DNA from: an uncultured Candidatus Saccharibacteria bacterium
GTDB lineage: Bacteria; Patescibacteriota; Minisyncoccia; UBA6257; JAGOQP01
Reading direction: 5' to 3'
Assembly: GCA_964420205.1 (NCBI GenBank)
Contig: CAYQSO010000002.1
Coordinates: 7,765-71,764 of the forward strand
Length of the DNA: 64,000 nucleotides
Shown: piece by piece, positions 2,021 through 55,509 of the stretch
Position numbering within the stretch: the first letter of the stretch is position 1
Layout of the letters: the number at the start of each line of letters is the position of its first letter
The notes under the pieces: generated by a model
The model's database searches: none
The model's input: the letters and a program-made list of their open reading frames with translations, nothing else
What the model was told of the DNA's origin: nothing
Translations under genes and position numbers: made by a program

Positions 2021-2498
2021 TAATTGCCCTTTCTAAAAGAGATTCGAAAGCTGCTTCTTCATTACTATACCAAGAATTAGACAACATATCTTTTATCGCA
2101 ATATCTAACATCTTTTCTAAAGTAGTTCTAGTTATATTAGCTTTATCTAACTCTTCTTGAACTCTTACAAGGTCTGCTGTTTTTTGATTAAGAGAATCCA
2201 CATCAGATTTTACTTTTGCTCTAATATTTTTTATTTCTGTCCTTAGCCTACTCTCCTTTTGTTTTAAAAAACTTTCTTTCCTAACTGCATCTCCCACCAT
2301 AACTCTTCCCGAAGTATAATCTATTAATCTTAAATCACACAATTGGGAATGAATTGCCCCCTCAGTTCTTCCAAAATATTTTGCTAATTTCGGTATGGAC
2401 ATACCATTTACAAACATATTTGTAAGTAAGTCTTTTAATTCTTTTGTCCATGGTTCCATGTGATTTCTATACTTCTTTTTCATTTCACTAATTGTCAT
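2013..2498 (-). CDS. HTH DNA-binding protein (sigma region-4-like helix-turn-helix) with C-terminal coiled coil
   Basis: MSIPKLAKYFGRTEGAIHSQL is an HTH-like segment; the remainder is predicted coiled coil. Confidence 0.35.
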   Translation of the reverse strand: MTISEMKKKYRNHMEPWTKELKDLLTNMFVNGMSIPKLAKYFGRTEGAIHSQLCDLRLIDYTSGRVMVGDAVRKESFLKQKESRLRTEIKNIRAKVKSDVDSLNQKTADLVRVQEELDKANITRTTLEKMLDIAIKDMLSNSWYSNEEAAFESLLERAING

Positions 2499-2655
2499 TT
2501 TCTTTCTCCCTATACTATTTCAAATAATAACCTAATACTAAGGAATTGAAATTCCTGTCTATTAAATCTTAAATTAATATTTTGTCCAGCCCAACCAAGA
2601 ACAGTTTCGTATTTCTATTTGTTAAGTACTCGATATCTTTTTCGTACTCTAAAAT

Positions 2656-2844
2656 CTATTGTCTTAGTTTATAAATTTCTGCTTTTGCTTTATTTGCAAG
2701 TGTTACTCCTGTCATATGTTTTACCGGTCTTCCAGTCGTACCGCAAACACTGTTCCGAAGCTTATCTTGGTAAAACACATAATAAGATAATAAACCACAA
2801 CCTTGCCTGTCTTCGTAAGGATAACTTATTAACTTCTTTCCCAT
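2656..2844 (-). CDS. hypothetical small protein
   Basis: 62-aa ORF of non-low-complexity composition in line with flanking minus-strand genes; a GA-rich stretch precedes its start. Confidence 0.3.
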   Translation of the reverse strand: MGKKLISYPYEDRQGCGLLSYYVFYQDKLRNSVCGTTGRPVKHMTGVTLANKAKAEIYKLRQ

Positions 2845-2856
2845 TTTTTCTTCTTC

Positions 2857-3033
2857 CTATACTCTTGAATATCTACTACACATTTCAAAACAAATATCTT
2901 CTTTATTATAAACTGGCTCATACATTTCAAAATTTTTACACTTATAAGCATACCCACACTTACCTTCCGGTAACGCCCTGCCCCTTTTACAGGTAAAACA
3001 GCACTTATTTTCTTCCTTTTTATATTTATACAT
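2857..3033 (-). CDS. hypothetical small Cys-rich protein (not in ORF track)
   Basis: Manual translation: MYKYKKEENKCCFTCKRGRALPEGKCGYAYKCKNFEMYEPVYNKEDICFEMCSRYSRV (58 aa, 8 Cys). It is abutted by the next minus ORF. Confidence 0.3.
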   Translation of the reverse strand: MYKYKKEENKCCFTCKRGRALPEGKCGYAYKCKNFEMYEPVYNKEDICFEMCSRYSRV

Positions 3034-3041
3034 TCTACTAC

Positions 3042-3380
3042 CTATAAGTACATAATTGCAAGATAATTTATTAAGAGATGTGCTGTATTGTCTCTAATGA
3101 TATTTATCCAAACTATCAACCAAACTGGTCTATCAGATTTATTACTATTAAAATAGTTTATTATATTATCTATATACTCACCAAATTTAATATGATCTAT
3201 TATAGCATGCGATAAACATATAACGAGCAAAGCTAATGAACTTTGTGTAATAAGTAAAAATGGTAAGATATATGTCGCAGCATGTTGTAATGCTAATCCG
3301 AAATTCTCTTTTTTACCAAGTGCCTGCCTATCTGTTTGTAGCCAATAGTCACCTATCAAATGAGCTATTAATTGCTCCAT
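3042..3380 (-). CDS. small integral membrane protein
   Basis: Three hydrophobic helices (YILPFLLITQSSLALLVICL, VWLIVWINII, LLINYLAIMYL); overlaps the QueC-like gene by 32 nt. Confidence 0.4.
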   Translation of the reverse strand: MEQLIAHLIGDYWLQTDRQALGKKENFGLALQHAATYILPFLLITQSSLALLVICLSHAIIDHIKFGEYIDNIINYFNSNKSDRPVWLIVWINIIRDNTAHLLINYLAIMYL

Positions 3381-4050
3381 CTCTTAATTCCTTTTCATAC
3401 TTTGCTAATTTATACGTTATACATGGGGTGCACTTCCCACACTCTATTATTTCTTTATTATCTAAAACAGGTTCTTCACACCACCAACAAAAATCTAAAA
3501 GACCTTCCTCTTCTAATTTATTTATTATCTCCAATTTCCTTTTAAGTGATAAAGGGAGCCTCCAAAGAGTACCTGAACACCCCACCATACGAAATGAATT
3601 ATTAATTATACTTTCTAATTCACTATAAGTATACCATATAGAATCATTATATATATAACCTAAATAAATACTGGTATTATCATCAATAAATGATAGTATA
3701 TTTGAAAACCAATAAAAAAATTGTAACCCTGAAGTAGTTCCTTGTTCTACCCAATTAATTTTAGGTAGTTTTAAATCTATTTTAACTTTAGCATAATTTA
3801 CATTATAACCTAAACTTTTTAAATACTTTTTAAACTTTTTTCTACTTTCTTCTTCTTTTTTTATCTTCTCTGATCTTAATCCCCAAAATTCCACAGAGAC
3901 ACAATTAATAGAATGCCCCTCTTTCTTACCATACTTCTTACAAAGTTCATACAATAATAAAGTAGAATCACACCCACCCGACCAAAGCAATAAGTGTTTT
4001 GTATGACCTGACTCAGGGTAATCTCCCAGATAGAAATAATTTTCTTCCAC
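3349..4050 (-). CDS. queC: QueC-like PP-loop ATPase (7-cyano-7-deazaguanine synthase family)
   Basis: PP-loop SGGxDS (LLLWSGGCDSTLLL) near the N-terminus and a QueC-type C-terminal zinc motif C..C...CGKCTPC (compare B. subtilis CGECPACHLR). 233 aa. Confidence 0.55.
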   Translation of the reverse strand: MEENYFYLGDYPESGHTKHLLLWSGGCDSTLLLYELCKKYGKKEGHSINCVSVEFWGLRSEKIKKEEESRKKFKKYLKSLGYNVNYAKVKIDLKLPKINWVEQGTTSGLQFFYWFSNILSFIDDNTSIYLGYIYNDSIWYTYSELESIINNSFRMVGCSGTLWRLPLSLKRKLEIINKLEEEGLLDFCWWCEEPVLDNKEIIECGKCTPCITYKLAKYEKELRDGAINSSFDR

Positions 4051-5572: not shown

Positions 5573-5891
5573 TACTATTTTCCACTATTTAATATTACTA
5601 TAAATTAAAACACAGGTTAAAAGACTTGAACTCTTACTAAACGGGTTGGAGCCGTTTGTGCTACCGATTACACCAAACCTGCAAAATAAAACAGTAGTTT
5701 TTCATCAATACGGAACTATAAAACTACCAAAAATAGTCAGCGATTCTTTAACTAGTATTATTCGCTTAGGAACTTTGTTCAAAGTCTTAACAACCTTTAT
5801 CTTGTTAAGCACTTATCTAGAACAGGGAGAAACACTACCGTCTATTAATATTATAATAGCAAATTAAATATACTATGTCAAGCCTAAATTT

Positions 5892-6556: not shown

Positions 6557-9500
6557 CTAACGTATGGGGCATACCCCATTTTCACAATCACTACCTAAAT
6601 CATCATCTAAATTATATTGTTTTTCATATTTAGCTATCAATTCGGGTGTTATTTTACCAAATTGTTTATTTAACTTATTATATTCTTCTTCTGTAATTGC
6701 TTCATAAGGGGCTAAAGGGTATTTAGCATCATACAAAGGTAAAAAAGATATTCCAACAAAATCATCCCAATTCTCATAAACCCAATCTATTACACCTGCC
6801 CATTCATTATCTCGAACAGTAACCGTGATAGATGTGTTATGGTCTGTGTAATTTCTCATGAACATTTTATAAGTTTCTAATTGTTCTATTGCACTAATAT
6901 CATATTTATTTTTACCTTCGGGTGACTTTACATAAAAATCTATTACATTAGTATCACAAGTTTCAGGGTCCTGTCCTACTTCAGGTGATATATTATATCC
7001 CAATTCTTCTGCTACTTTTAATAAAGGGTCCCCTGAATTAATTCGCACTCTTCTAATATAGTAAGGGGAGTGTGAATGATGAACACCCGGAGATATAGTG
7101 GGAAGTAAACTAAGTGTTCCAGAAGGTTTAATTGTAGTGACTAACTTAGGGGTATTTCTTCCTAGGGAATTTGCTATTTTAGTTGCTTCCGTACGTGCTG
7201 TTTCTCTTAGGAGTTTTAAAATAGATACTTGGTTCTCTTCCGACTTATCGTAGAGTAAATTCACTGCGTCTTGCCACCCACTTAAAGCTACCCCTAGTAA
7301 CATATGTTCTTCTTGGACTTTTTTCCATTCTGGTAACTCAATATTTACACAAGCCATTCTATACGAAGCACGTGTAAACGTCCTAACAGCATTTAATATT
7401 TCTTCATTAAGCTCCCCATCTTTTACAAAAGATTTTACATTAATCTCTACTAAATTACAAAATCCTTTAGAAGGTAAAAGTATCTCACAATTATGAACCA
7501 TAAAACCATTTACTATGCCCCAATGAGATAAAGGTTCTTCGAAATCAAAAACATCATGCTCCCCTATATGAGAAATATCTTCTATCGTAACAGTATTATA
7601 GTCACGTATTGAATCATTTTTCTTACAGTAAGACTGAAAAATCAAGCATTTACCTTTTAAATCCTTTGCTTTGCAATTTGAACCATCCTCAAGCATAAAA
7701 ATATGGTCTTCTGTACATTTTATAATTCTATTATTAGACATTTTTAACCTAATACAAGGTTTACGACCAGTAAACCAAACTTTGCCTTGTGATATATTTC
7801 CATCAGCATTTATTATATCTATTTGCTTCTCATTCAGTTCTTTAAAAGTTTTATAACCTTTTGATGTCAATAATTTCATATCCCCCGTAAAACAACAGGG
7901 ATTTAGCCCTTCCATAGTAGGGAGTCTACGTTGAGCCTCTTGTTTATTAATAAAGCCAGGTTCACCTGTAGTTTTTATACTGTTAAATATTTCTACCAAC
8001 TCTTCTTTCGACGGTCTTTTATTGAATAGAATACTATTGTTGCTCGATACCCTATGTGTTTTGTTTGGGTCAGATACCCACGCACCATCTTCATTTTGAT
8101 AGTAAATACCTTGTTTAGCCAGTCTCACGTCTTCATCGTCTTTATCAAATAAACAAACTAATGCAGTCCTTCTTACACCCCCAACCTGAACTGCGCATCC
8201 TACTAAATTACATATATCTAAAATGTCTATAGTTTTTAAACTACCATTAGACCTACTTACAATACCTATAATTTTCTCAAACAATATTTTAAGGGGGACA
8301 TGCCCACTTGCATAACCACCAAAAGTTTTTAAGGGGGCGCCTTCAGGTCTAACATTATCGAAGTCTACTAATATAGTAGATAATAGAGGGTTCTCTAAAC
8401 ATTTGAACAAGTACCTTAAGGCACCTACCCAACCCTCCTTAGAATCCCCTACAACAATAGTAGCGACGTTACCTGTGGTTTGTAATGTACTAAACTCTTC
8501 TTTATCTATTTTTTCAGAATATTCTTTAGATAATATTCTAATACTTGTATTTAAATTAGAAAAAGCACTAATATTTTCTATTACATCTAAAAAACCAACC
8601 CCACAACCTAATAAGAGGAGATAAAATAACTCACAGATATCTTCTGTATTATCTATTTTTGTAAAAGAACAATTTTTAGTCAATATATTATTCGCCAGAG
8701 TAAATGATTCTGTTTCTGGTTCAACAACACACCAAACATCTTCTATAATATCTGTTTCTTCTACACCTTTCACAACCCACGAAGGTTCAAAACTTGTTTC
8801 TTTTACACTTGACTTATGTTTACTATTCAAAAAGAAATCATCTGGTACATGTTTTGAATATAAATTCAATCTATAATTCGGAGCGTATTCTCCAGTATAC
8901 GGTGAAAGTTCTCTATTTAATTCAACTTTTCCACAATCAATACCTAATATAGAAAATATACTTTTAATATGGTCTAATGTGTTTTTATTAGAATTACTTA
9001 TTGAGATATTACTCTTGTAATAAGACCCATCTGTGGCAAATAAGCCCATCACAAACCCCATTAAATATTCCACATTAGAGTTCAGAGATGGGAGATTTTT
9101 CCATGTATTTGGTAGGCCATATATCACTTTCTGGTTATATTTTCCAGCGGTACATTGAGACCCTGTTGTAAAATATAATGCAAGTTCCTGCTTATTATCT
9201 ACTAAATGAACCCTACAATGGTTCATTTTTTTATTATATGTCCCATCTCCAAAAACCATACCATGTTGTATCCCAACAGAACACGGAACTATATTAGTTT
9301 GTTCATATCTTCTTTTCTCTCTCAAAATATCGCCATTTTTTAACTCATTAGTAGTCTTAACAATAAATTTTTTCTCAGACTTGTACCTTTTTACATACCA
9401 CCTATGATTTTCTGTAGTGTAAATAATATCTTCTCTTTTACCTCTACCAACAATCAACTTTACCAATTTAGACTTTCCGAAATTTCTAATAGTAGCAGTT

Positions 9501-9928
9501 TTCCACCCACCAGTAGAGGATAATATATCTACGTTATCACCATCACTAAAATCATTAAATGACTTTATTCCTTGCTTTGTTATAAATTCTGTATCTGATT
9601 TAAAACAGTTAAAATTACTAGAGGCATATTTTTTAGAGCTCTCTGTTCCACCTACCCATAATGTTCTGCCGCTTAAAAATCCTTTAAGGTTAAATATCGT
9701 ATCAAATAATTGCTCTGCTTCTCTTATAGAAACTCCATGAACTAACGAACAATTATATTCTACTGCTCTCCTAACTGTCTCCCACCAATACTCTCTTCTA
9801 TTTTGTTCTGGTAAATATCTTGAATAAGTTCTATAATAAACAAACTCTCCCAATGAAGTCATCGGTGGATTCACATCTTTATATTTACTTATAAATTCTT
9901 CACTTAATAACATTAATTTATGCCTCAC
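6557..9928 (-). CDS. nrdJ: adenosylcobalamin-dependent class II ribonucleotide reductase precursor, interrupted by two inteins
   Basis: N-terminal EFVYYRTYSRYLPEQNRREYWWETVRR is the class II RNR signature; NPC...EI thiyl-radical site; 1123 aa. About 450 aa is accounted for by two Hint/intein insertions. Confidence 0.85.
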   Translation of the reverse strand: MRHKLMLLSEEFISKYKDVNPPMTSLGEFVYYRTYSRYLPEQNRREYWWETVRRAVEYNCSLVHGVSIREAEQLFDTIFNLKGFLSGRTLWVGGTESSKKYASSNFNCFKSDTEFITKQGIKSFNDFSDGDNVDILSSTGGWKTATIRNFGKSKLVKLIVGRGKREDIIYTTENHRWYVKRYKSEKKFIVKTTNELKNGDILREKRRYEQTNIVPCSVGIQHGMVFGDGTYNKKMNHCRVHLVDNKQELALYFTTGSQCTAGKYNQKVIYGLPNTWKNLPSLNSNVEYLMGFVMGLFATDGSYYKSNISISNSNKNTLDHIKSIFSILGIDCGKVELNRELSPYTGEYAPNYRLNLYSKHVPDDFFLNSKHKSSVKETSFEPSWVVKGVEETDIIEDVWCVVEPETESFTLANNILTKNCSFTKIDNTEDICELFYLLLLGCGVGFLDVIENISAFSNLNTSIRILSKEYSEKIDKEEFSTLQTTGNVATIVVGDSKEGWVGALRYLFKCLENPLLSTILVDFDNVRPEGAPLKTFGGYASGHVPLKILFEKIIGIVSRSNGSLKTIDILDICNLVGCAVQVGGVRRTALVCLFDKDDEDVRLAKQGIYYQNEDGAWVSDPNKTHRVSSNNSILFNKRPSKEELVEIFNSIKTTGEPGFINKQEAQRRLPTMEGLNPCCFTGDMKLLTSKGYKTFKELNEKQIDIINADGNISQGKVWFTGRKPCIRLKMSNNRIIKCTEDHIFMLEDGSNCKAKDLKGKCLIFQSYCKKNDSIRDYNTVTIEDISHIGEHDVFDFEEPLSHWGIVNGFMVHNCEILLPSKGFCNLVEINVKSFVKDGELNEEILNAVRTFTRASYRMACVNIELPEWKKVQEEHMLLGVALSGWQDAVNLLYDKSEENQVSILKLLRETARTEATKIANSLGRNTPKLVTTIKPSGTLSLLPTISPGVHHSHSPYYIRRVRINSGDPLLKVAEELGYNISPEVGQDPETCDTNVIDFYVKSPEGKNKYDISAIEQLETYKMFMRNYTDHNTSITVTVRDNEWAGVIDWVYENWDDFVGISFLPLYDAKYPLAPYEAITEEEYNKLNKQFGKITPELIAKYEKQYNLDDDLGSDCENGVCPIR
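7490..7894 (-). mobile_element. intein 2 in nrdJ (about 135-aa mini-intein at the NPC active site)
   Basis: NPC|CFTGDMKLL...GFMVHN|CEILLP: N-terminal Cys, C-terminal HN, +1 Cys, and no endonuclease domain. Coordinates by residue counting (aa 679..813). Confidence 0.6.
8672..9607 (-). mobile_element. intein 1 in nrdJ (about 312 aa, LAGLIDADG homing-endonuclease type)
   Basis: Starts with Cys right after NFN (CFKSDTEF...) and ends ...ILTKN before the CSF extein. LAGLIDADG-like blocks HGMVFGDGTY and LMGFVMGLFATDGSY. Coordinates come from residue counting (aa 108..419). Confidence 0.65.
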
Positions 9929-11977: not shown

Positions 11978-12382
11978 TTAACTTTTTTCGAACTTCTCTT
12001 TCAATTCAAGGTACTTTTTATAATCTTCTTCATCTTTCTTTTGGTTAACAATCTTATGTCTATCCAAGCGTTCTTTCTGTTTCTTTTTATAAGATTCTTT
12101 TATTTCTTCTATATAAGACTGTAAAGCATTTTCATCCCAAATAAATTCTTCTTTGAATTTTTTATAAGTATTATCACCACACTCTACAAAAACCTCTCGA
12201 TTACTTATCTCGTACTCCGACTCTTCTACTAAGAAAGCCTCCATGTCATAAGCGTAATCCCAGTCATCAAAAATACTGTATACCACATCAAGTTCTATTA
12301 GAGTATTCCCGATGTCACAAATTCGCTGTTTTATTTTATTTTCCTGTTTTCTAAACTCATAGTATTCTTCTTTTGTAATCAT
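11978..12382 (-). CDS. hypothetical acidic protein
   Basis: 134-aa Glu/Asp/Lys-rich ORF with no diagnostic motif. Confidence 0.3.
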   Translation of the reverse strand: MITKEEYYEFRKQENKIKQRICDIGNTLIELDVVYSIFDDWDYAYDMEAFLVEESEYEISNREVFVECGDNTYKKFKEEFIWDENALQSYIEEIKESYKKKQKERLDRHKIVNQKKDEEDYKKYLELKEKFEKS

Positions 12383-12591
12383 CTACTCTGGTACCCCATC
12401 ATCTTAGACAAACAACTTAAACAAATTTTATCGTGGTACGCTGAACATGTCATATTTACCTTCTTCTTACCACATACACCACATTTTTCACCAAATAAAA
12501 AATCTTTTACAGGCTCTAAAAACTTATGTATTCTATACGTCCAATGAAAACGTACTTTACACGGATAAATTGTATAATCTTCTCGTTTCAT
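12379..12591 (-). CDS. hypothetical zinc-ribbon protein
   Basis: CGVCGKK...C..C..C; 70 aa; starts only 34 nt downstream of the tnpB stop. Confidence 0.3.
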   Translation of the reverse strand: MKREDYTIYPCKVRFHWTYRIHKFLEPVKDFLFGEKCGVCGKKKVNMTCSAYHDKICLSCLSKMMGYQSR

Positions 12592-12625
12592 TATCTTCTG
12601 CTCCGTAATTTGTATTCAAACATAA

Positions 12626-13960
12626 TCATTCTAAAACAATTACATTTGAAGTTACTAATTCGCTTTTTCTTGCTTCATTGTACTCTCTTTTGTTGTTGCT
12701 TGCAACAACTACTTGAGTTTGTTTTAACACTCCACAAGCTTTACTAACTCTAACAGAATTAAAGTTAGTTCCCGACAAGCCATCGGTACATGTATTCCTT
12801 ACTTCATTAAGTAGGATATAATCTTTACAGTTCTTGAGATTAACTGCTGCATTGTAGTCTCTTTGGTGCTCTGCACCACAATTACTACATTTCCAGTTTC
12901 TATCTTTTAATTTTAGTTCTTTATTCTTCTCTCCACAGCTACTACATAACTTACTACTTGGAAAGAATTTATTTACTTCTCTTACTTCTATATTATGTTT
13001 TGTACACTTCTGTACAAGAACTTGTTTAAAATAGTAAGGTTTATTTTGAAGAATAGTTTTAGAAAGATGTTTGTTCCTAACCATTCCTTTAATATTTAAG
13101 TTTTCAACTGTAACATATCTAGGTTTCCCCTTAACTATGTTATCTATACATTTATTAGTATAAGAGTTTCTTATTTGTTCTAACCTGTAGTACACTTTTT
13201 CTACTCTTAGTTTATTTTTAATATAATTGTTACTTACTTTATCTCTCTTTTCTTTCTTCTTAGCTTCGTACTTTCTACTTAAAGCTCTCTGTTCTCTTCT
13301 TAATTTCTTTTCTAACTTTTTAACTCTAGTAGTTTTATTAATGTTTTTGTATTCTTCTTTGTTAGAACATGTTAAGAAAGTACTTATTCCCCAATCAATA
13401 CCAATACCTTCATTACAATTCTTATTATCTTTACTACTCTCTTCATCTGTTATAACAGAGATGAAATATCTATTAGATCTCTTAGTTATTACTCCACTTA
13501 TTATTTTATTGTTTCCTGTAGGGAGGTATCCTTTCTCTTTCAGAGAAACCTCTCCGAACATAGGAATTTTAATTTTATGCCTAGAACATCTTATAGGTCT
13601 GTTTGCCTCTACTCTAACAAAATAAACTCCTGTCTTGTCTTTAGAAGCTTTTTTAAATTTAGGAAATCCTTTCTTTGATTTAAATGCTTTTTGGTAAGTT
13701 GAATTACAATTATCTATAGTCTTTCTAAGAGCTTTACTCCCTGCTTCTTTCAACCAATGTTTATCTTCGTTCTCTTTTAAATAAACATTATTAAACCATT
13801 TAGAGAACTCGTAGTTATTAAGATATTTTTCTCCTGCGGAGTAACGTTCTTTATTAACAGAAATAAAAAGATTCCAGACAAATCTACATGCAGAAATTGT
13901 AAGCTTGTAAAGCTTCTCCTGTTCTTTATTTAGTTTTACTTCTGTCTTGTAAGCTTTCAT
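12626..13960 (-). CDS. tnpB: TnpB (IS200/IS605-family OrfB; OMEGA RNA-guided RuvC nuclease), copy 1
   Basis: Canonical MKAYKTEVKLNKEQEKL N-terminus, C-terminal zinc finger CSSCGEKN...CSNCGAEHQRDYNAAVNL (RuvC-III). The track ORF extends to 14086, but Met43 at 13958..13960 is the likely start, judged by alignment to copy 2. Confidence 0.85.
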   Translation of the reverse strand: MKAYKTEVKLNKEQEKLYKLTISACRFVWNLFISVNKERYSAGEKYLNNYEFSKWFNNVYLKENEDKHWLKEAGSKALRKTIDNCNSTYQKAFKSKKGFPKFKKASKDKTGVYFVRVEANRPIRCSRHKIKIPMFGEVSLKEKGYLPTGNNKIISGVITKRSNRYFISVITDEESSKDNKNCNEGIGIDWGISTFLTCSNKEEYKNINKTTRVKKLEKKLRREQRALSRKYEAKKKEKRDKVSNNYIKNKLRVEKVYYRLEQIRNSYTNKCIDNIVKGKPRYVTVENLNIKGMVRNKHLSKTILQNKPYYFKQVLVQKCTKHNIEVREVNKFFPSSKLCSSCGEKNKELKLKDRNWKCSNCGAEHQRDYNAAVNLKNCKDYILLNEVRNTCTDGLSGTNFNSVRVSKACGVLKQTQVVVASNNKREYNEARKSELVTSNVIVLE

Positions 13961-13993
13961 TGATAAAAAGAAAAGTTCTAAGAAATTATTTTG

Positions 13994-14057
13994 TAAGCAG
14001 ATACAATTCTTCCTAGAACTAAAATTAATATAAATCTTATTTAATTGTATCTGCTTA
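13994..14057. repeat. perfect 15-bp inverted repeat (taagcagatacaatt / aattgtatctgctta) with 34-nt spacer in the presumed IS left end
   Basis: Read directly from sequence (13994..14008 and 14043..14057); lies between the real tnpB start and the over-extended track start. Confidence 0.7.
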
Positions 14058-14175
14058 ATATTATAATTTAACTTAAAATTTTTCATTTAGATTTCCCTGT
14101 AAAGGTATTAAAAATGAATATGTTTTACATATATTTGATTATGTTATGGGAGACTGTTCATTATCTTCTCTCCTC

Positions 14176-38353: not shown

Positions 38354-41300
38354 TTAGAGCGGTTTCGGTATTAAAGTAGTACGTGATTCATCATCTACCC
38401 ATTTAAAATCGAATATTTGTCCAAAACGATACCCCAGTCCAATTGTAGCTTTAATAGGCAAAGGCCAATCTGGTAAGCTAAAATACATTATATCTTCTAT
38501 TAACCTAGTGTATTCTACTATTTTATCTAAATCAACATAAAGGTTCACTTCGTCATGTATTGTCGAAAGAAAAGCACACTCTTTTTCTTTTTCGGATATA
38601 CTAAATATTTTCTGATACATCTTCTTAAGAACTATACGCATAATATCCCCCGCACTTCCCTGGATTATGTGGCTGCTGACTCTTCTCTCAGCAGCAGATA
38701 TCATATTATTTGACTCTCTTTCACCTTTCCTAGGGTCTTCTGCTTCTCTTTCTATCCTCTCAGCCATATTTACATATGACCCGAAGCGTCTGGGCCTCCC
38801 ACAGAACGTAAATGTAGTTCCGGCATTATTCCACATCTTATTTATTTCATTTTGTCTCCATTGCATAGCCCCAAAAAAAGCTTCACAATAGGCATCATAA
38901 AGAGCTGTTGCGTGTTCTAACGGGATTCCAGAATTCTTAGATATGGAATCAGAATGACCACTATAATTTATAGCAAAATTCACAGCCTTTGCTATTTTTC
39001 GTAGCCCCTTGTTATAATTTTCTCTACCCCATATAGCGTACGCTGTCGCAGTATGTGGATCAATACCTTCCCTGAAATTTGATAACTTTACACTATCTTT
39101 ACTGTAATTAGTAAGGAGAACGTCTTCCTGTGAACTGTAATCCACACTCAAAATAATCTTTTTCTTACTATTAACCTTTTTAAATGATGGAACTACTACA
39201 CAATTTCTAATATTAAAATTAGGGGAGAACCCTTCTACTAAATAACAGTCTTCTGAGTCAGTGTGGTTTTTAATGTCTTCATCAGACATTAAATCAAAAC
39301 ACCAACCTAATATATTACCCTCTTTCTCAGATTTGTATGCTTTATAAATCGCTCCTGACGGTTTACTAAGATTCTGCGCATTAAGATCTATATAATAGGG
39401 GTTCTTAGTCTTCTTATCACTCTTACTCCCATTACCACTTGCAAATCTCCCTGAAGCGGTCCCAAAAAGTTTATATCTCATCCTACACTCATCTACCTTA
39501 GTCAGTTTATCAATGTAACTATTGATAGCCTTATTCATAGTAGAGTACTTCTGTATCTTCTTTAAAATACTTAACTTTTCATTTTCTTTTTTAAGCATTA
39601 TTTTTAATATTTTTAAAAAATATTTTCTATTGAGAATTCTACTTCCTTTTTTAAGCGGAACTAGTTTCTTATTTTTATTCTTTCTTTTCGCTCTGCTCAA
39701 TACTCTTATAGTATTGTTATTCAACTGCATTACTTGGAAATAGTCACTCCCATGTGCTTCTAGTATTTTATATAAATAAAACATATCTACGTGTTCTCTT
39801 ATATGTAATTCTGAAGCACAAAATCCTTTTGTAAAATAACCTTCTTCATTCTTTTCTAATTTTTCTATAATACCTCGTAAATCTGTTAAATTCTTAGAAA
39901 ATATTCTTGTACCATCTTTTTTACCAAAAGAAATCTGATCTGTATCTGTCCTTGCCCCAGTATCTATATTCTTAGATGCCATAGCATTTTTAAACTCTTT
40001 AGAAGAGGTACTAAGGTTGAATATTCCTATATCAAAATAATTATATATTTCCTCCTTAAGCTGAGTTATTACTTCGATAGCTTTTTCTTTATATTTTTTA
40101 GCTTCTTCTTTATCTATATAAAGTTTAGTATGTCCATAATAATCAATCCAATACCTTATAAGAGTGTTGTCTGATTTTATAACGTCAAATTTTTTACCGT
40201 TAAACTCTACTATATTGGGGTAAGTACTTATTAGTTTTTTAACTTTCGGATATAAATAGTAAAAAAGTGCCAAGCAGCAACATGAGTCTGCACAATTACC
40301 CGAAACCAAGACTTTACCATTTCTTCTAGTTATTAAAGTGTGATTTGGTACTTCTGCACAATAAACCACCCCACTATATGGAACAATTTCTCTCTGGTAT
40401 TTCTTGTATCTAACACTTTTCTGTCTTTGTGTGTACACACTATAAATTTGGTGCACATTTTCTCTTTTTATTACACGTCCTCTAATAACACAGTCTTTTT
40501 TAGGTGGTGCTTTTAAAGTTAATATACTAGTCCTACCACCCAACATTAATAGCTCTTGTAACTGATTAGCCATTTTGATAGATGTAGTATAAAAAACCCA
40601 CGCTGAGTCAGTTTTTCTAGACCCATCACAATAATTAAAATATTTTAGAAACTCATTTATACAGTACGAATCCATTTTAAAAATTTCAGGTGGAATATAC
40701 TTTTTCTGAGCCTTACCTTCCATATAAGGTTTTATCCAATTATAAAACTTTTTATTATAACAAACCCAGCTATTCCCTTTTTCTCTTTTGTTAGGGCGAA
40801 ACCCCATATTAGTTTCCATTAACATATTTTCTAACTCTTTTTTGAATTTATCGCTACAAACAGCCAGCCCTATGTGATAACAAACTTGCTTGTCGCCTCT
40901 TTGAACAATCCAACCATCTGCCAACAACGCACCTGTTAATCTGGCTAATTGTACAGGGGTTAAATTAACATTCTTACTAAAATGAAAAGAATCCTTCCCA
41001 CTACCTTTCTTCTCTGTGGGAGCTTTATAACCGCTTTCTTCAACTAAAAGATCTTTTGCCTGTTTGAATACCCATTCTTTATGTTGTGCTCGCTTAACTA
41101 GCATATTATGGTTGGGGGTAACACAAAAATCAAGATGTTTACTTTTATAAGAAATCATCTCTCCTTTATATTCATACGCATATAACCTTAGAGGACGCTG
41201 GTACTCTAATTCATCTTTTTCCACATTTACAGTAGCTAAAAGGTCTTCTCCATTATAATCTTTCCACATTACCCAACCATTTTCAGTCAATACTTCAGTC

Positions 41301-42319
41301 TGATCATCGTGGCATGCATAAATAACTGTGCTCCTATCGTAGGGGCATACATACTTGAATTCACCCGGAAATTCTAACATAGTACGTCCTAGATACAATT
41401 TAGCACTTAACTTAAGTCCTGCCATTTTTGACTCCGCATCAAAAAGATACGGAAGTATCATAGAGTCAAAAAAGTTAACTTTTTCAATAGAATAACCTTC
41501 TTTCTTATACATATTAAGGTCAAATTCAGCATTATGGATTACTACTAACTTTGCACTTGTTAAAGCTTTATATAAAATATCAAGGGACTTTTTTGCACTT
41601 CTCTCATTTTCTTCTTCTGTTAAAACATAACTAGAAACTTCCATTTCAGATAAATGCTTTTCAAAGTCTCCTATCATACAGTCTATACTACCAAGTTTAG
41701 CTTCTACTACTTCTTTTTCTAAATCTTTAGAATTTTCAAGAAAGTTTTCTTTATCTTGTTTTAACCCATCTATTAATTTTTGCGTCTCTTCTCTTTGTCT
41801 CTGTAATTCTAATTGCTCCCTTACTTCTTTGCTACATATATTTCCATTATGTAATGAATACTCATACGTCTTTACCGTAGTCTGACTTACTCTTCCTGTT
41901 TTAGTATATACTACATTTCCTTCTTCATCTAATTTAGGAACTTTTTCTGAACCCACTTCTTTTTTTCGCATATGTCTCAAAGGGCAATAAATCCCCGAAT
42001 TGTCGTCCAGTGAAAGAGAGAACCCTACAATGTAATCACCACCTTCTTCTCGAGGTGAACTGTTCAGTCCAGTAGTTTCAGTGTCAAACCCGATTATCTT
42101 ATCTTTACAAAGTTCTACGAATTCTTCCAACTCTTCTAAAGTATTAACAAGTTTATAGTCCCCTAAATAAATAAGATTCCCTTCCTCATCGTATTTATGA
42201 AACTTATTATCAAACTCTCTATAACCATGTACAGGTATATATTTGTACAACGTTTTACTGCTTTTTTTCTTTTGTTCTACCTTTTGTTGAACATATTTTT
42301 TCTTATAATCTTTTGTCAT
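38354..42319 (-). CDS. family A DNA polymerase (3'-5' exo plus polymerase domains) precursor containing an intein
   Basis: Exo I IGFDTETTGL; polymerase motif A LSVDYSSQE, motif B RKIAKAVNFAINYS, motif C LSTIHDEVN. The likely true start is MTKDYKK, 12 codons inside the track ORF (which begins at 42355). Confidence 0.85.
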   Translation of the reverse strand: MTKDYKKKYVQQKVEQKKKSSKTLYKYIPVHGYREFDNKFHKYDEEGNLIYLGDYKLVNTLEELEEFVELCKDKIIGFDTETTGLNSSPREEGGDYIVGFSLSLDDNSGIYCPLRHMRKKEVGSEKVPKLDEEGNVVYTKTGRVSQTTVKTYEYSLHNGNICSKEVREQLELQRQREETQKLIDGLKQDKENFLENSKDLEKEVVEAKLGSIDCMIGDFEKHLSEMEVSSYVLTEEENERSAKKSLDILYKALTSAKLVVIHNAEFDLNMYKKEGYSIEKVNFFDSMILPYLFDAESKMAGLKLSAKLYLGRTMLEFPGEFKYVCPYDRSTVIYACHDDQTEVLTENGWVMWKDYNGEDLLATVNVEKDELEYQRPLRLYAYEYKGEMISYKSKHLDFCVTPNHNMLVKRAQHKEWVFKQAKDLLVEESGYKAPTEKKGSGKDSFHFSKNVNLTPVQLARLTGALLADGWIVQRGDKQVCYHIGLAVCSDKFKKELENMLMETNMGFRPNKREKGNSWVCYNKKFYNWIKPYMEGKAQKKYIPPEIFKMDSYCINEFLKYFNYCDGSRKTDSAWVFYTTSIKMANQLQELLMLGGRTSILTLKAPPKKDCVIRGRVIKRENVHQIYSVYTQRQKSVRYKKYQREIVPYSGVVYCAEVPNHTLITRRNGKVLVSGNCADSCCCLALFYYLYPKVKKLISTYPNIVEFNGKKFDVIKSDNTLIRYWIDYYGHTKLYIDKEEAKKYKEKAIEVITQLKEEIYNYFDIGIFNLSTSSKEFKNAMASKNIDTGARTDTDQISFGKKDGTRIFSKNLTDLRGIIEKLEKNEEGYFTKGFCASELHIREHVDMFYLYKILEAHGSDYFQVMQLNNNTIRVLSRAKRKNKNKKLVPLKKGSRILNRKYFLKILKIMLKKENEKLSILKKIQKYSTMNKAINSYIDKLTKVDECRMRYKLFGTASGRFASGNGSKSDKKTKNPYYIDLNAQNLSKPSGAIYKAYKSEKEGNILGWCFDLMSDEDIKNHTDSEDCYLVEGFSPNFNIRNCVVVPSFKKVNSKKKIILSVDYSSQEDVLLTNYSKDSVKLSNFREGIDPHTATAYAIWGRENYNKGLRKIAKAVNFAINYSGHSDSISKNSGIPLEHATALYDAYCEAFFGAMQWRQNEINKMWNNAGTTFTFCGRPRRFGSYVNMAERIEREAEDPRKGERESNNMISAAERRVSSHIIQGSAGDIMRIVLKKMYQKIFSISEKEKECAFLSTIHDEVNLYVDLDKIVEYTRLIEDIMYFSLPDWPLPIKATIGLGYRFGQIFDFKWVDDESRTTLIPKPL
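40295..41314 (-). mobile_element. intein in DNA polymerase (about 340 aa, LAGLIDADG type) inserted in the Exo III motif (YA|C..D)
   Basis: VIYA|CHDDQTEVLTENGW...LARLTGALLADGW...FLKYFNYCDGS...VPNHTLITRRNGKVLVSGN|CADSCCCLALFYYL; the extein junction restores the Y-x-x-x-D exo motif. Coordinates by residue counting (aa 348..687). Confidence 0.6.
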
Positions 42320-42644
42320 TATTAAAATTAACTCCTGTACTAGATAAACCAACATTAGTGAAATTAAAATCTTTGTACTTCCACCAATCTTTTTTCTTCA
42401 TCATCTTTTTAACTTTTCTTGGGTACTTATCCCACCTACAGTACTTCCCGATACCTAATATGTAATTAAATATTATTAATTTTACTCTATTTTCTATATT
42501 AGTTTGAATTTCTCCCACACATTCGCCATAGGGCTCTCTTACAGCAGAAGTAGCAGTATCTCTTGACTCACATAAATATTGAGACGATATTCCTGTTGCC
42601 ATAACAATGTCTTGTCTTAATTTATATAATCTCTCTTCTATCAT
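42303..42644 (-). CDS. hypothetical protein
   Basis: 113-aa ORF upstream of the polymerase. Confidence 0.3.
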   Translation of the reverse strand: MIEERLYKLRQDIVMATGISSQYLCESRDTATSAVREPYGECVGEIQTNIENRVKLIIFNYILGIGKYCRWDKYPRKVKKMMKKKDWWKYKDFNFTNVGLSSTGVNFNNDKRL

Positions 42645-49891: not shown

Positions 49892-50406
49892 TATGGATTG
49901 AATACCTCTGGGTAACCTGTAAAAGTTTCAATCCCGTCTATATGAACATACCCTTTAGGAACAGTTACTTTGTCTATTTCTATTCTTTTAAAAAATTTTA
50001 ATCTACCTTGTATCATCAAATCCCATATAAAATTAAAAAATAACTGATACTGCTTATTAGCAGGTTCTAAATCAAAAGCTCTAAAAGAACAATGAGCACT
50101 TAAATAAGGTATTTTCTTACCTTTTACAATAGAATCTATGTTTGACCTCAATCCTCTCTGTGTCATATTACCATTAAAAGCCCACGTATTTATAAAAATG
50201 CCCTTAGACAGGACTTTAAGATCAGAGAAGGTATCACAATATTCTTCCCACTTTTCTCTTATAAAATCTAACTCCCTCGGAGCTTGTTCAGGGAACATTA
50301 ACCATAAAAATTCCTCTCCAAAACGAGGAACATAATAATTATATACTAAAGGGCTAACTAACTCCTTTAAAATAAAATGTTCACACTTATACATACTACA
50401 CACCAA
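49891..50406 (-). CDS. LAS-superfamily zinc peptidase (M15-like), possible peptidoglycan hydrolase
   Basis: SAHCSFRAFDL fits S-x-H-x4-A-x-D and the downstream GYVHIDG fits the second His ligand of M15 peptidases; 171 aa. Confidence 0.4.
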   Translation of the reverse strand: MVCSMYKCEHFILKELVSPLVYNYYVPRFGEEFLWLMFPEQAPRELDFIREKWEEYCDTFSDLKVLSKGIFINTWAFNGNMTQRGLRSNIDSIVKGKKIPYLSAHCSFRAFDLEPANKQYQLFFNFIWDLMIQGRLKFFKRIEIDKVTVPKGYVHIDGIETFTGYPEVFNP

Positions 50407-53339: not shown

Positions 53340-54810
53340 TATTGTTCTCCTTACCTATTGACTTTTAATCTGTTGAACTAAAGACTCTATATACAAATCA
53401 AACTGCTCCAAATTAGTAACTTTAAACATAATTTATCCTACTTGAAGTTACTAATTCGCTTTTTCTTGCTTCTCCAGTATACCTGTTAGGTATACAATCG
53501 TACTCTCTTTTATCACCAGAGGCGACTACTTGAGTTTGTTTTAACACTCCACAAGCGTTAATTCCCGACAAGCCATCGGTATTTACACTATTTAACAATG
53601 TGTATTCTTTACAATTCTTAAGGTTTACTGCTGCATTGTAGTCTCTCTGGTGCTCTGCACCACAACTACTACATTTCCAGTTCCTATCTTTTAATCTTAA
53701 CATATTATTTTTAGTATTACAAATACTACATAATTTAGATGAAGGGTAAAATCTACCTACTTCTCTTACTTCTATATTATGTTTAGTACACTTTTGTGTT
53801 AGAGTTTGTTTAAAGTAATAAGGTTTATTTTGTAGGGTAGCTTTACTTAGATGTCTGTTTTTAACCATTCCTTTTACATTAAGGTTCTCAATAGAAACAA
53901 ATTTAGGTTTCTTCCTAACTATATCATCAATACACTTATTAATGTAGGAATTTCTTATTTGTTCTAACCTATAATGAAGTTTAGAAACTTTATCTTTATT
54001 CTTTATATAATTGTTAGAAACTCTATCTCTTTTCTCTTTTTTCTTGGCCTCGTACTTCCTATTTAAAGCTCTCTGTTGTCTTTTAAGATTTTTTTCTAGC
54101 TTCTTAATCTTAGTAGTCTTATTAATATTTTCGTAACTAGTACTATTAGAACATGTCAAATATGTACTAATCCCCCAGTCAGCACCAATTCCTTCATTAC
54201 AATTCCTGTAATCTCTCGTACTCTCCTCGTATACTATAACAGAGATAAAATACTTACTAGCTCTCTTAGTTATTGCTCCACTTATTATTTTATTAGACTC
54301 TATAGGAAGATATCCTTTTTCTTTTATGTGTATCTCTCCAAACATAGGAACTTTTATCTTGTGTCTCTCACATTTAATAGGTTTATCTAAAGATGCTCTT
54401 ACAAAATATACCCCTGTCTTATCAGTAGAAGCTTTTTTAAATTTAGGAAATCCTTTCTTCTCCTCCATAAATTTAACATAAGTATTATCACAATTCATCA
54501 TTGTCTTCCTAAGAGCTTTACTTCCAGCTTCCTTTAACCACTGTTTATCTTCATTCTCTTTGAGATACTCATTATTGAACCATTTACTAAAGTTGTAGTT
54601 ATTAAGATATTTTTCTCCTACGGAGTATCTTTCTTTATTAACAGAGATAAACAAATTCCAGACAAACCTACAAGCTGAAGTAGTAAGCTTGTAAAGCTTT
54701 TCCTGTTCCTTATTTAATTTTATCTCTGTTCTATAAGCTTTCATTAATGGGACTGTTCTATCTTTTATACTCATCAAATGTGTAAAATAATGTTATTAAA
54801 ATTTAATTTA
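53340..54810 (-). mobile_element. second TnpA-less IS605-family element (boundaries approximate)
   Basis: tnpB copy 2 with a 10-bp inverted repeat aattagtaac/gttactaatt flanking its stop codon (53411..53456) and a 3' flank partly shared with copy 1 (aaacataat). Confidence 0.45.
53422..54744 (-). CDS. tnpB: TnpB (IS200/IS605-family OrfB; OMEGA RNA-guided nuclease), copy 2
   Basis: MKAYRTEIKLNKEQEKLYKLTTSACRFVWNLF N-terminus; CSICNTKNN...CSSCGAEHQRDYNAAVNL C-terminus. Roughly 70 percent identical to copy 1 by eye. The track start at 54777 is 11 codons upstream of the canonical MKAY start. Confidence 0.85.
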   Translation of the reverse strand: MKAYRTEIKLNKEQEKLYKLTTSACRFVWNLFISVNKERYSVGEKYLNNYNFSKWFNNEYLKENEDKQWLKEAGSKALRKTMMNCDNTYVKFMEEKKGFPKFKKASTDKTGVYFVRASLDKPIKCERHKIKVPMFGEIHIKEKGYLPIESNKIISGAITKRASKYFISVIVYEESTRDYRNCNEGIGADWGISTYLTCSNSTSYENINKTTKIKKLEKNLKRQQRALNRKYEAKKKEKRDRVSNNYIKNKDKVSKLHYRLEQIRNSYINKCIDDIVRKKPKFVSIENLNVKGMVKNRHLSKATLQNKPYYFKQTLTQKCTKHNIEVREVGRFYPSSKLCSICNTKNNMLRLKDRNWKCSSCGAEHQRDYNAAVNLKNCKEYTLLNSVNTDGLSGINACGVLKQTQVVASGDKREYDCIPNRYTGEARKSELVTSSRINYV

Positions 54811-55509
54811 GTTTGCTTTTATTTGGCCTATTAAGACGTTAACGTACAAATCAAACTCTACATCCGTCATATTTATTATACTATTTGCATTACCCATTAT
54901 AGCCATCGCAAACTGATTTAATTGTTGCTCCGTCATAGTAAATACTGCTATTGCTAACTGTTCATTAGCTGTTCTTATTTTATTACTTATTTTTACATCC
55001 AGCTCTGTTAAATCATCTACTTTTTGTGTGATCAAATCTCTTATTCTCTCTACCTCAAAAGAATCTATGGAAATTACTTCATCTAAACCTGTATCATAAT
55101 GTTTAATTTTATGTTTCTTTATACTACCGGATTTCATAGCAGTAAGCACAAGATCACTCAATGTTTCTTCAAGGAGATTTAACTTAGCAATAACTTTATA
55201 CCCATCTGCTTTAGTTACCTGTACTGGAAACGATAAAGCTCTATATTCACTTGCTTTTTCTAAATAAAAATTAAGCCCGTTTTCTCTAAGTAATTCTATG
55301 TCTAATAGCTTTTCTCTATAATAAGGGTAATTATCCATTGGTTCATACTCTTTACCATCATCAGGAATTTCAACTAAATTATAAAAAGAGCTATTTTCAC
55401 ATTCTGTATTATTCTTACTATAAATTATACTTAATGTTTCTTTATCTAATATTCTACAACTTTTATACACTATTAAAAACTCCTCTTTGTTGTAAATATA
55501 ATTTCCCAT
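54808..55509 (-). CDS. hypothetical protein
   Basis: 233-aa ORF directly upstream of the tail-fibre genes. Confidence 0.3.
   Translation of the reverse strand: MGNYIYNKEEFLIVYKSCRILDKETLSIIYSKNNTECENSSFYNLVEIPDDGKEYEPMDNYPYYREKLLDIELLRENGLNFYLEKASEYRALSFPVQVTKADGYKVIAKLNLLEETLSDLVLTAMKSGSIKKHKIKHYDTGLDEVISIDSFEVERIRDLITQKVDDLTELDVKISNKIRTANEQLAIAVFTMTEQQLNQFAMAIMGNANSIINMTDVEFDLYVNVLIGQIKAN

Follow-up and report, generated by a model that had tools for sequence, protein, structure and literature searches.

In a 64,000-nucleotide stretch of an uncultured Candidatus Saccharibacteria contig (CAYQSO010000002.1; the whole stretch is called the window below), we identified two cassettes, each consisting of a tnpB gene for an RNA-guided nuclease and a predicted RAGATH-18 guide RNA (reRNA, or omega-RNA). 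Judged by its sequence, the first cassette (copy 1) is a derivative of an IS607 insertion sequence that lacks the transposase TnpA, and we give a probability of about 0.7 to the reading that this tnpB and its guide RNA work in TnpA-independent homing, or exclusion, in a phage. The nuclease gene, the scaffold, the position of the guide, the lack of a detectable TnpA in the window and the purifying selection on the nuclease genes are established from the sequence; such a role is likely. Apart from a pair of 13-nt repeats, the locus is an ordinary member of a known family of RNA-guided nucleases.

The nuclease gene, its guide RNA and its family

The product of tnpB copy 1 matched the Pfam domains HTH_OrfB_IS605 (PF12323), OrfB_IS605 (PF01385) and Cas12f1-like_TNB (PF07282), that is, the TnpB architecture of a helix-turn-helix (HTH)/REC part and a RuvC domain interrupted by the zinc-finger TNB. 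The catalytic residues D189 (GIDWG), E286 (VENLN) and D368 (QRDYNAA) are found in both copies and align to D194/E290/D371 of ISFba1 TnpB, and the zinc ligands C339/C342/C358/C361 are also kept in both. An earlier note on this DNA, which had read a full RuvC and zinc-finger C terminus here and named missing RuvC residues among the outcomes that would count against it, thus holds on this point; the intact triads also rule out the TldR class of nuclease-dead, TnpB-like repressors. The same note had rightly suspected that the start of the gene was over-extended. The called open reading frame (ORF) spans 12626..14086 (-), and the true start is the ATG at 13960 (MKAYKTEV), which is matched by copy 2 and by 32/32 aligned clade members with the N-terminal pattern M(K/R)xY(K/R)xE. 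The upstream 42 codons are an over-call that runs across a hairpin, and copy 2 can be aligned with copy 1 only from about 5 nt 5' of this ATG. Between the two copies, the ratio of nonsynonymous to synonymous changes (dN/dS) was 0.15 in the core at a dS of about 1. Because of this combination, we read both copies, on sequence grounds, as being under purifying selection and kept as working genes.

A whole-window Rfam scan at the gathering threshold recovered RAGATH-18 at the 3' end of copy 1, as well as one tRNA and nothing else; an IStron, combining a group I intron with an IS605/IS607 element, was rejected on this result. RAGATH-18 has been found only with IS607 TnpBs, which form guide-directed DNases and cut DNA beside AGGAG or GAGGG (Ren et al. 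2024, Cell Res, PMC11061315). The published reRNA scaffold of about 187 nt consists of a 5' flank of about 50 nt, the 72-nt RAGATH-18 core and a 3' flank of about 65 nt, and is followed by a 20-nt guide (PMC11061315). The predicted scaffold of copy 1 has the same parts. A 5' hairpin (ACCGAUGGCUUGUCGG), into which a further, copy-specific hairpin of 24 nt is inserted, is followed by the core; the 3' flank of 69 nt folds into a long stem-loop and terminates in a single-stranded GGAGCAG (12604-12598). In copy 2, a 36-nt insertion lowers the RAGATH-18 match (53463..53555) to 31.3 bits, under the gathering score, and the 3' flank folds into a similar long stem from a different sequence. Across the clade, the 5' hairpin shows the compensatory pairs CCGA/UCGG, CUGG/CCAG, CUGA/UCAG and CCGU/ACGG; the terminal AGCAG is unpaired and lies at the place of the published pseudoknot PK2 (PMC11061315), and the folding of the whole scaffold gave a z score of -3.2. 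The compensatory pairs, the retained stems, the unpaired AGCAG and the folding score support a working RNA.

The right end of the scaffold was set by comparison. At 9/9 clade loci the conserved 3' region ends in ...AAAUUAnnA(A/G)GCAG and the sequences diverge at once after it, and 27 more distant RAGATH-18 elements from IMG/VR phage contigs end in ...GAGU(A/G)GCAG and then diverge. We placed the end at 12598 because conservation stops after GCAG in both of these sets and in a filled and empty pair of Staphylococcus phage sites described below. An end at 12646, which the alignment of copies 1 and 2 alone had pointed to, was dropped because the published length of the 3' flank and the nine-locus comparison make it only a variable stem-loop within that flank. 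A 21-mer of the scaffold matched an ATP-synthase gene in a Paceibacterota metagenome-assembled genome, which we regard as a chance match, and a 21-mer scan of viral contigs gave nothing.

The predicted guide directly follows the scaffold. It is identical to the DNA immediately to the right of the element, has no second match in the window and covers the ATG (12591-12589) of the adjacent zinc-ribbon gene with its positions 7-9, in agreement with the earlier note, where the guide was expected to extend into the start of that gene. The note had placed the omega-RNA at the tnpB 3' end in 12592..12700: a structured RNA is indeed there and was found by covariance-model search, but it is RAGATH-18 and not an IS605 scaffold, and the scaffold and its core extend further into the gene (Table 1).

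We assign the element to the IS607 type, and not to IS200/IS605, because of the RAGATH-18 RNA, the best solved relative and the transposases of complete relatives. The closest solved structure is the ISFba1 IS607 TnpB (8IAZ; E 9e-102 over residues 1-381), compared with E of about 8e-33 for the IS605 ISDra2 TnpB (8BF8/8H1J); the third catalytic position of the deposited 8IAZ chain is alanine, presumably the inactivating change D371A. The closest database relatives form a clade of proteins of 428-460 aa. Within it, the complete elements L016 (ERZ27247131; 63% identical) and L100 (JGI 3300045700; 58%) carry a TnpA of 197-200 aa with MerR-HTH and Resolvase domains that abuts or overlaps tnpB, and the order tnpA then tnpB is the IS607 architecture. 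The earlier assignment to a TnpA-less IS605-family element therefore stands as to the missing TnpA and fails as to the family. Pfam names containing "IS605" and a nearby hairpin are insufficient for an IS200/IS605 assignment, and the RNA and the relatives put right a tempting mistake.

Table 1. Positions and properties of the features of the two cassettes in the window
Feature	Position	Strand	Properties
tnpB copy 1	12626..13960	-	444 aa; IS607-type RNA-guided nuclease by sequence; RuvC D189/E286/D368, zinc finger C339/C342/C358/C361
reRNA (omega-RNA) scaffold, copy 1	12598..12787	-	190 nt, predicted; layout as in PMC11061315
RAGATH-18 (RF03064)	12667..12738	-	full-length; 64.7 bits against a gathering score of 44.9; no non-canonical pairs
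Predicted 20-nt guide, copy 1	12578..12597	-	AAGAUAAUGAAACGAGAAGA; directly after conserved GCAG
Right direct repeat, copy 1	12587..12599	-	AGAAGATAATGAA; AG of GCAG plus guide positions 1-11
Left direct repeat, copy 1	14157..14169	-	AGAAGATAATGAA; just after the SbcD-like stop (TAA 14178-14176) and GAGGAG (14175-14170)
Left repeat-to-ATG stretch, copy 1	13961..14156	-	196 nt; contains hairpin
Long imperfect hairpin	13971..14084	.	about 114 nt; dG -30.1 kcal/mol, z -4.6
Zinc-ribbon gene	12379..12591	-	70 aa; start region is guide/target
tnpB copy 2	53422..54744	-	440 aa; 74.6% identical to copy 1 (tblastn); triad and zinc finger intact
reRNA scaffold, copy 2	53403..53580	-	predicted; ends GGAGCAG
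Predicted guide, copy 2	53383..53402	-	TTTGATTTGTATATAGAGTC; only its own match in the window
Right direct repeat, copy 2	53392..53404	-	AGTTTGATTTGTA
Left direct repeat, copy 2	54845..54857	-	AGTTTGATTTGTA; within the 3' end of gene 54808..55509; preceded by TAGAG

The ends of gene and RNA overlap, with about 55 final codons of copy 1 sharing their DNA with the scaffold. In all 32 aligned clade proteins the reading frame is open through the scaffold (12626..12787 in the window), giving an extra tail of 55-90 aa whose conserved motifs TDGLSGxN, ACG and E(A/T)xKS are the translated conserved RNA. The indels between the window copies in the scaffold-coding part (24, 3 and 24 nt) are all multiples of 3, and at loci L015 and L101 the stop codon of tnpB lies past the scaffold end, inside the flanking DNA.

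At its other end, the scaffold borders on the zinc-ribbon gene, and its terminal GGAG (12604-12601), 9 nt 5' of the ATG, could replace the ribosome-binding site of that gene. At 5/9 clade loci (window 12598..12604, L016, L017, L101 and L102), a downstream start codon is found 3-15 nt from the scaffold end (GGAGCAG or GAAAGCAG). The published target-adjacent motif (TAM) AGGAG is itself a Shine-Dalgarno sequence (PMC11061315). These patterns suggest that the elements enter the gap that separates a ribosome-binding site from a start codon and afterwards provide a replacement for that site.

Cassette boundaries and the candidate target-adjacent motif

An exact direct repeat of 13 nt, beginning at the AG of GCAG, stands on either side of each cassette, and there are no terminal inverted repeats. 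The chance of a given 13-mer recurring within 2 kb upstream in the window is 7e-4 per position. Such repeats were found at none of seven other clade loci, and shorter flanking repeats were seen in L016 (AG+ATAT) and in the Staphylococcus phage BE05 (AG+TGAG). Two further candidates were rejected: a 13-nt repeat at L022 is not at the right end, and one at L045 can be put down to two flanking genes whose starts are paralogous. The L045 element (2600..3000), an IS607 element from IMG/VR, retains only the MerR-like HTH of TnpA, 74 aa without the resolvase domain, and sits between decayed and intact copies of one small gene.

On the left side of copy 1, the 5 nt before the 11-nt match to the target are GAGAG (14172-14168) and resemble a TAM. 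The motifs 5' of the target, GAGAG in copy 1, TAGAG in copy 2, AGGAG in L016 and L045 and GAGAG in the Staphylococcus empty site, suggest a candidate TAM consensus NRGAG; the target tetranucleotide expected by the earlier note gives way to this G-rich motif. When the cassette and one repeat were removed, the junction of copy 1 read TAA-GAGGAGAG-AAGATA-ATG-AAA-CGA..., a normal stop, ribosome-binding site and start between the SbcD-like and zinc-ribbon genes. In this reconstructed, uninterrupted junction, TAA-GAGGAGAG followed directly by AAGATAATGAAACGAGAAGA, a G-rich NRGAG stands immediately 5' of the full 20-nt target. The reconstructed cassette-less sequences are TAAGAGGAGAGAAGATAATGAAACGAG at the copy 1 locus and TGTAGAGTTTGATTTGTATATAGAG at that of copy 2. 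At copy 2, the left repeat is followed by a 12-codon gene tail (YVNVLIGQIKAN and stop; 54808..54850) and the guide by another (YIESLVQQIKSQ and stop; 53350..53392). The tails are of equal length and identical at 5/12 residues, and they may represent a diverged duplicate of the end of the target gene on either side of the cassette.

Candidate explanations for the AG+11 repeats are recombination scars and functional partial self-targets. We considered, as a speculative and rather improbable idea, that NRGAG with an 11-nt copy of the seed at the 5' boundary is either a partial self-target, bound without being cut and serving the control or insulation of the cassette's own expression, or the footprint of a TnpB-dependent insertion. 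The self-target would be analogous to the partial-match repression by Cas9/tracr-L or CreTA; the footprint may come from a TnpA-independent pathway that duplicates the seed-proximal 11-13 bp of the target. If true, either would be a new property of phage OMEGA elements. The repeats and the ORF through the guide-RNA scaffold are minor leads that matter only if functional.

Between the left repeat and the ATG of copy 1, we found no similarity to the equivalent 100 nt of copy 2 or to the left end of the complete relatives, and no significant similarity to the zinc-ribbon gene; the corresponding part of copy 2 is likewise unlike the left end of L016. This stretch holds the hairpin that the earlier note had taken for the left end of the insertion sequence. 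The core of the hairpin is, as described there, a perfect 15-bp inverted repeat (13994-14008 / 14043-14057) with a 34-nt spacer; it is the sole perfect inverted repeat of at least 15 bp in the 64 kb, and none arose in 60 Markov-1 simulations. The role as a left end did not stand: the hairpin occurs once in the window, and because it is absent from copy 2, L015 and L101, we conclude from these comparisons against a conserved transposon end. The terminator-like hairpins found 5' of tnpB in L102 and L104 are unrelated to it. No sigma-70-like promoter or canonical terminator accounts for the hairpin, which is possibly a transcriptional insulator or a 5'-UTR (untranslated region) structure.

Phage setting, proposed mechanism and rival readings

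The setting in a phage genome was confirmed by PHROGs matches in the window to ribonucleotide reductase, DNA polymerase, DnaB, ligase, a tail protein and a DNA transfer protein; the large ORFs are all on one strand. No near match of the source contig was found in INPHARED. IS607-type tnpB genes, solo or in complete elements, are common in phages, with 379 INPHARED records and at least 557 IMG/VR stretches. The copy 1 cassette lies between the SbcD-like nuclease gene and the small zinc-ribbon gene. The earlier finding that the 64 kb hold no Y1 tnpA was upheld by a regular-expression heuristic, which detected no Y1 (HUH...Y) motif in the 119 stop-free segments of at least 80 aa in the window, and it extends to the serine-recombinase TnpA, as tblastn searches of the window with the TnpA proteins of L016 and L100 returned only matches with E > 1.

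Elsewhere in the window, a tRNA gene was found at 5611..5682 (-) (Rfam RF00005, 58.7 bits). Residues ~345-715 of the DNA polymerase ORF (38354..42355 (-), 1333 aa) match thymidylate-synthase and PhoH-like PHROGs, and the main profile match of the ribonucleotide reductase ORF (6557..9928 (-), 1123 aa) starts only at residue 416; either ORF could contain an intein, a fusion or an insertion. Other mobile genes abound in distant relatives of the phage region: L001 (518..5077) contains, immediately after its SbcD-like gene, three GIY-YIG-like ORFs together with a dUTPase that has a large N-terminal insertion, and L015 contains another tnpB, which is disrupted, as well as a LAGLIDADG-like ORF (2473..3609 and 7496..8266). 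The phage-like contig of L016, which carries the complete IS607 relative, has two int-alpA RNA (RF02996) matches, at 5730..5797 and 7123..7192.

We looked for an empty site of this phage, and the exact junction pattern had no match in metagenome and viral contigs. Relatives of the SbcD-like neighbour reach no more than 54% identity, the gene 54808..55509 has no homologues and no record of the zinc-ribbon protein exists; L013 repeats the sequence of the window and is truncated within tnpB, and the metallophosphatase beside the tnpB of L015 reflects apparent synteny and not orthology. The comparison of flanks with genomes lacking the insertion thus gave no pair for this phage itself, but an analogous pair of Staphylococcus phages sets the right end. 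In BE05, which carries a solo IS607-type tnpB, the right junction reads ...UAGCAG followed by TGAGAAGATTTG, and the empty site of phiIBB-SEP1 reads GAGAG followed by TGAGAAGATTTG; the flanks of the two are 99.8-100% identical. The solo tnpB, which is polymorphic among Staphylococcus Sepunavirus phages (L115, MT596502.1 72785-73891, against L116, NC_041928.1 ~50266-50302), lies between Rep/HTH and DnaB-like helicase genes. The Staphylococcus Sepunavirus pair is a ready natural system for tests of phage TnpB homing.

We propose that the reRNA would be made from the 3' end of tnpB, with the DNA to the right of the element (12597..12578) as its guide, and that the TnpB-reRNA complex would cut NRGAG plus the target in co-infecting or sister genomes without the cassette. 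Recombinational repair from a cassette-bearing genome would then copy the cassette in, and the outcome would be a TnpA-independent, "non-restorative" homing or the exclusion of competitor phages. The right junction would be spared by having AGCAG in place of a TAM beside the guide template, and the upstream site that does bear a TAM by matching only 11/20 guide positions. The second cassette (53403..54844) would act likewise at another locus. TnpA-independent homing has been demonstrated for plasmids and only proposed for phages (PMC13565253). The choice offered by the earlier note, a non-autonomous element or a homing, guide-directed nuclease, is in part answered by an intact guide-RNA nuclease without TnpA, with homing as a likely role.

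Several points weigh against the homing or exclusion reading. A TnpA could be encoded in the ~19 kb of the 83,277-bp source contig beyond the window; the boundaries and the homing itself are drawn from analogues, as no empty-site relative was found; the candidate TAMs, GAGAG and TAGAG, are not those in the literature (AGGAG and GAGGG); and the 13-nt repeats are predicted neither by IS607 transposition nor by simple homing. These repeats are also part of the case for a domesticated phage weapon or regulator in place of a selfish homing element. TnpB would then destroy related competitor phages or, in a variant, TnpB bound without cutting to the TAM and 11-nt partial self-targets at the 5' edge of each cassette would throttle read-through into its own gene. 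Purifying selection on both copies despite the loss of TnpA would fit such a role, as would the exact AG+11 repeat of its own target that both cassettes hold after NRGAG, and at copy 2 the end of the functional upstream gene (YVNVLIGQIKAN) resembles a diverged form of the tail encoded past the guide (YIESLVQQIKSQ), as is expected of an immune allele beside a guide against a sensitive allele. However, the partial targets overlap no promoter-like site, the repeats could be recombination scars and are missing at seven other clade loci, and the similarity of the tails is small in a gene without homologues. We therefore consider the weapon and regulator variants, taken jointly, unlikely though worth keeping in view; the results do not tell a weapon from homing, and one does not preclude the other.

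That the cassettes are inert relics, decaying dead-end IS607 fragments without a transposase, would agree with the failure to find TnpA in the window, with the lack of a recognisable left end in common with the complete relatives and with the RAGATH-18 score of copy 2 under the gathering threshold. A relic is nevertheless very unlikely, as both ORFs are intact across 440-444 codons at this dS and dN/dS, every catalytic residue and zinc ligand is retained, the RNA stems persist despite sequence change and the scaffold-guide junctions are conserved. We see hardly any chance of a non-autonomous IS200/IS605 element with the 15-bp hairpin as its left end, bound as single-stranded DNA by a Y1 transposase acting in trans. 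The hairpin is genuine and non-random and the Pfam names do include "IS605", but RAGATH-18 is specific to IS607, the closest complete relatives carry a serine recombinase, and the hairpin is absent in copy 2 and the relatives. At the right end, moreover, there is neither a hairpin to match nor the logic of a tetranucleotide, the candidate target-adjacent motif is rich in G and the left flanks are GAGGAGAG or GTAGAG and not an AT-rich tetra- or pentanucleotide. The heuristic detected no HUH...Y ORF in the window, and a Y1 TnpA combined with this hairpin, at a constant distance from an AT-rich cleavage motif, was seen at 0/9 clade loci. Transposition of IS607 elements proceeds through double-stranded circles formed by a serine recombinase and, to our knowledge, does not involve subterminal hairpins of single-stranded DNA. 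IS607 elements have no terminal inverted repeats and produce no target-site duplication (PMC13565253).

The window holds a well-delimited and apparently functional phage pair of IS607 TnpB-reRNA cassettes whose scaffold, guide and reconstructed target, along with a candidate TAM, are defined. These parts allow a direct test of the proposal that TnpB drives homing, or exclusion, between co-infecting phages.

Comparison with known systems

The closest described systems are the ISFba1-type IS607 TnpB-reRNAs (PMC11061315; 8IAZ). They share the fold and domains, the aligned D/E/D triad, the succession of 5' flank, 72-nt RAGATH-18, 3' flank of ~65-69 nt and guide, and the single-stranded ...AGCAG before the guide, and their G-rich TAM has a counterpart in the G-rich candidate motif of the window. 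Sequence identity is no more than moderate: phage-borne IS607 TnpBs of the ISCbt4 group, the closest of their kind, are ~45% identical to the window protein. The ORF of the window runs through the scaffold to 444 aa, whereas the ISFba1-type proteins have 384-387 aa and the ISFba1 RNA begins 13 nt past the stop codon. The window element further differs in its lack of TnpA, its candidate GAGAG/TAGAG motif, its phage host genome and its 13-nt direct repeats.

The complete relatives L016 and L100 have TnpBs 58-63% identical to that of the window, the long C-terminal tail, a scaffold end AAGCAG and the 5' hairpin, and L016 is also on a phage-like contig; unlike the window cassettes, both carry TnpA (197-200 aa, MerR-HTH and Resolvase). 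L016 also differs in a left end of ~50 nt with a consensus TTGACA-17-TATAAT promoter, flanked by AGGAG, and in a repeat of AG+ATAT only. The solo tnpB of Staphylococcus Herelleviridae (BE05 and phage 110; annotated "IS607 family transposase ISCbt3") likewise lacks TnpA, lies amid phage replication genes, has a right end ...AGCAG and, in a sister phage, an empty site with GAGAG before the target, near-identical phages differing by its presence. It differs from the window cassettes in an identity of ~40%, no Rfam RAGATH-18 match, 26 nt from junction to ATG and a repeat of AG+4 only.

We know of no experimental demonstration of homing by a phage-borne TnpB. In the homing, or gene drive, of the IS200/IS605 TnpB-omegaRNA of ISDra2, the guide also comes from the DNA past the right end, the vacant site is cut beside a TAM and repair restores or spreads the element. 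That system has a Y1 HUH transposase, hairpin ends of single-stranded DNA, an AT-rich TAM and another RNA scaffold, unlike the window element. The free-standing phage homing endonucleases (T4 Seg/Mob, "intronless homing") occupy the same niche between conserved phage genes, and the probable outcome of the window system, localized marker exclusion or co-conversion in mixed infections, would be like theirs. Whereas their target is recognised by a protein, that of the window system is predicted to be recognised by an RNA guide and a TAM.

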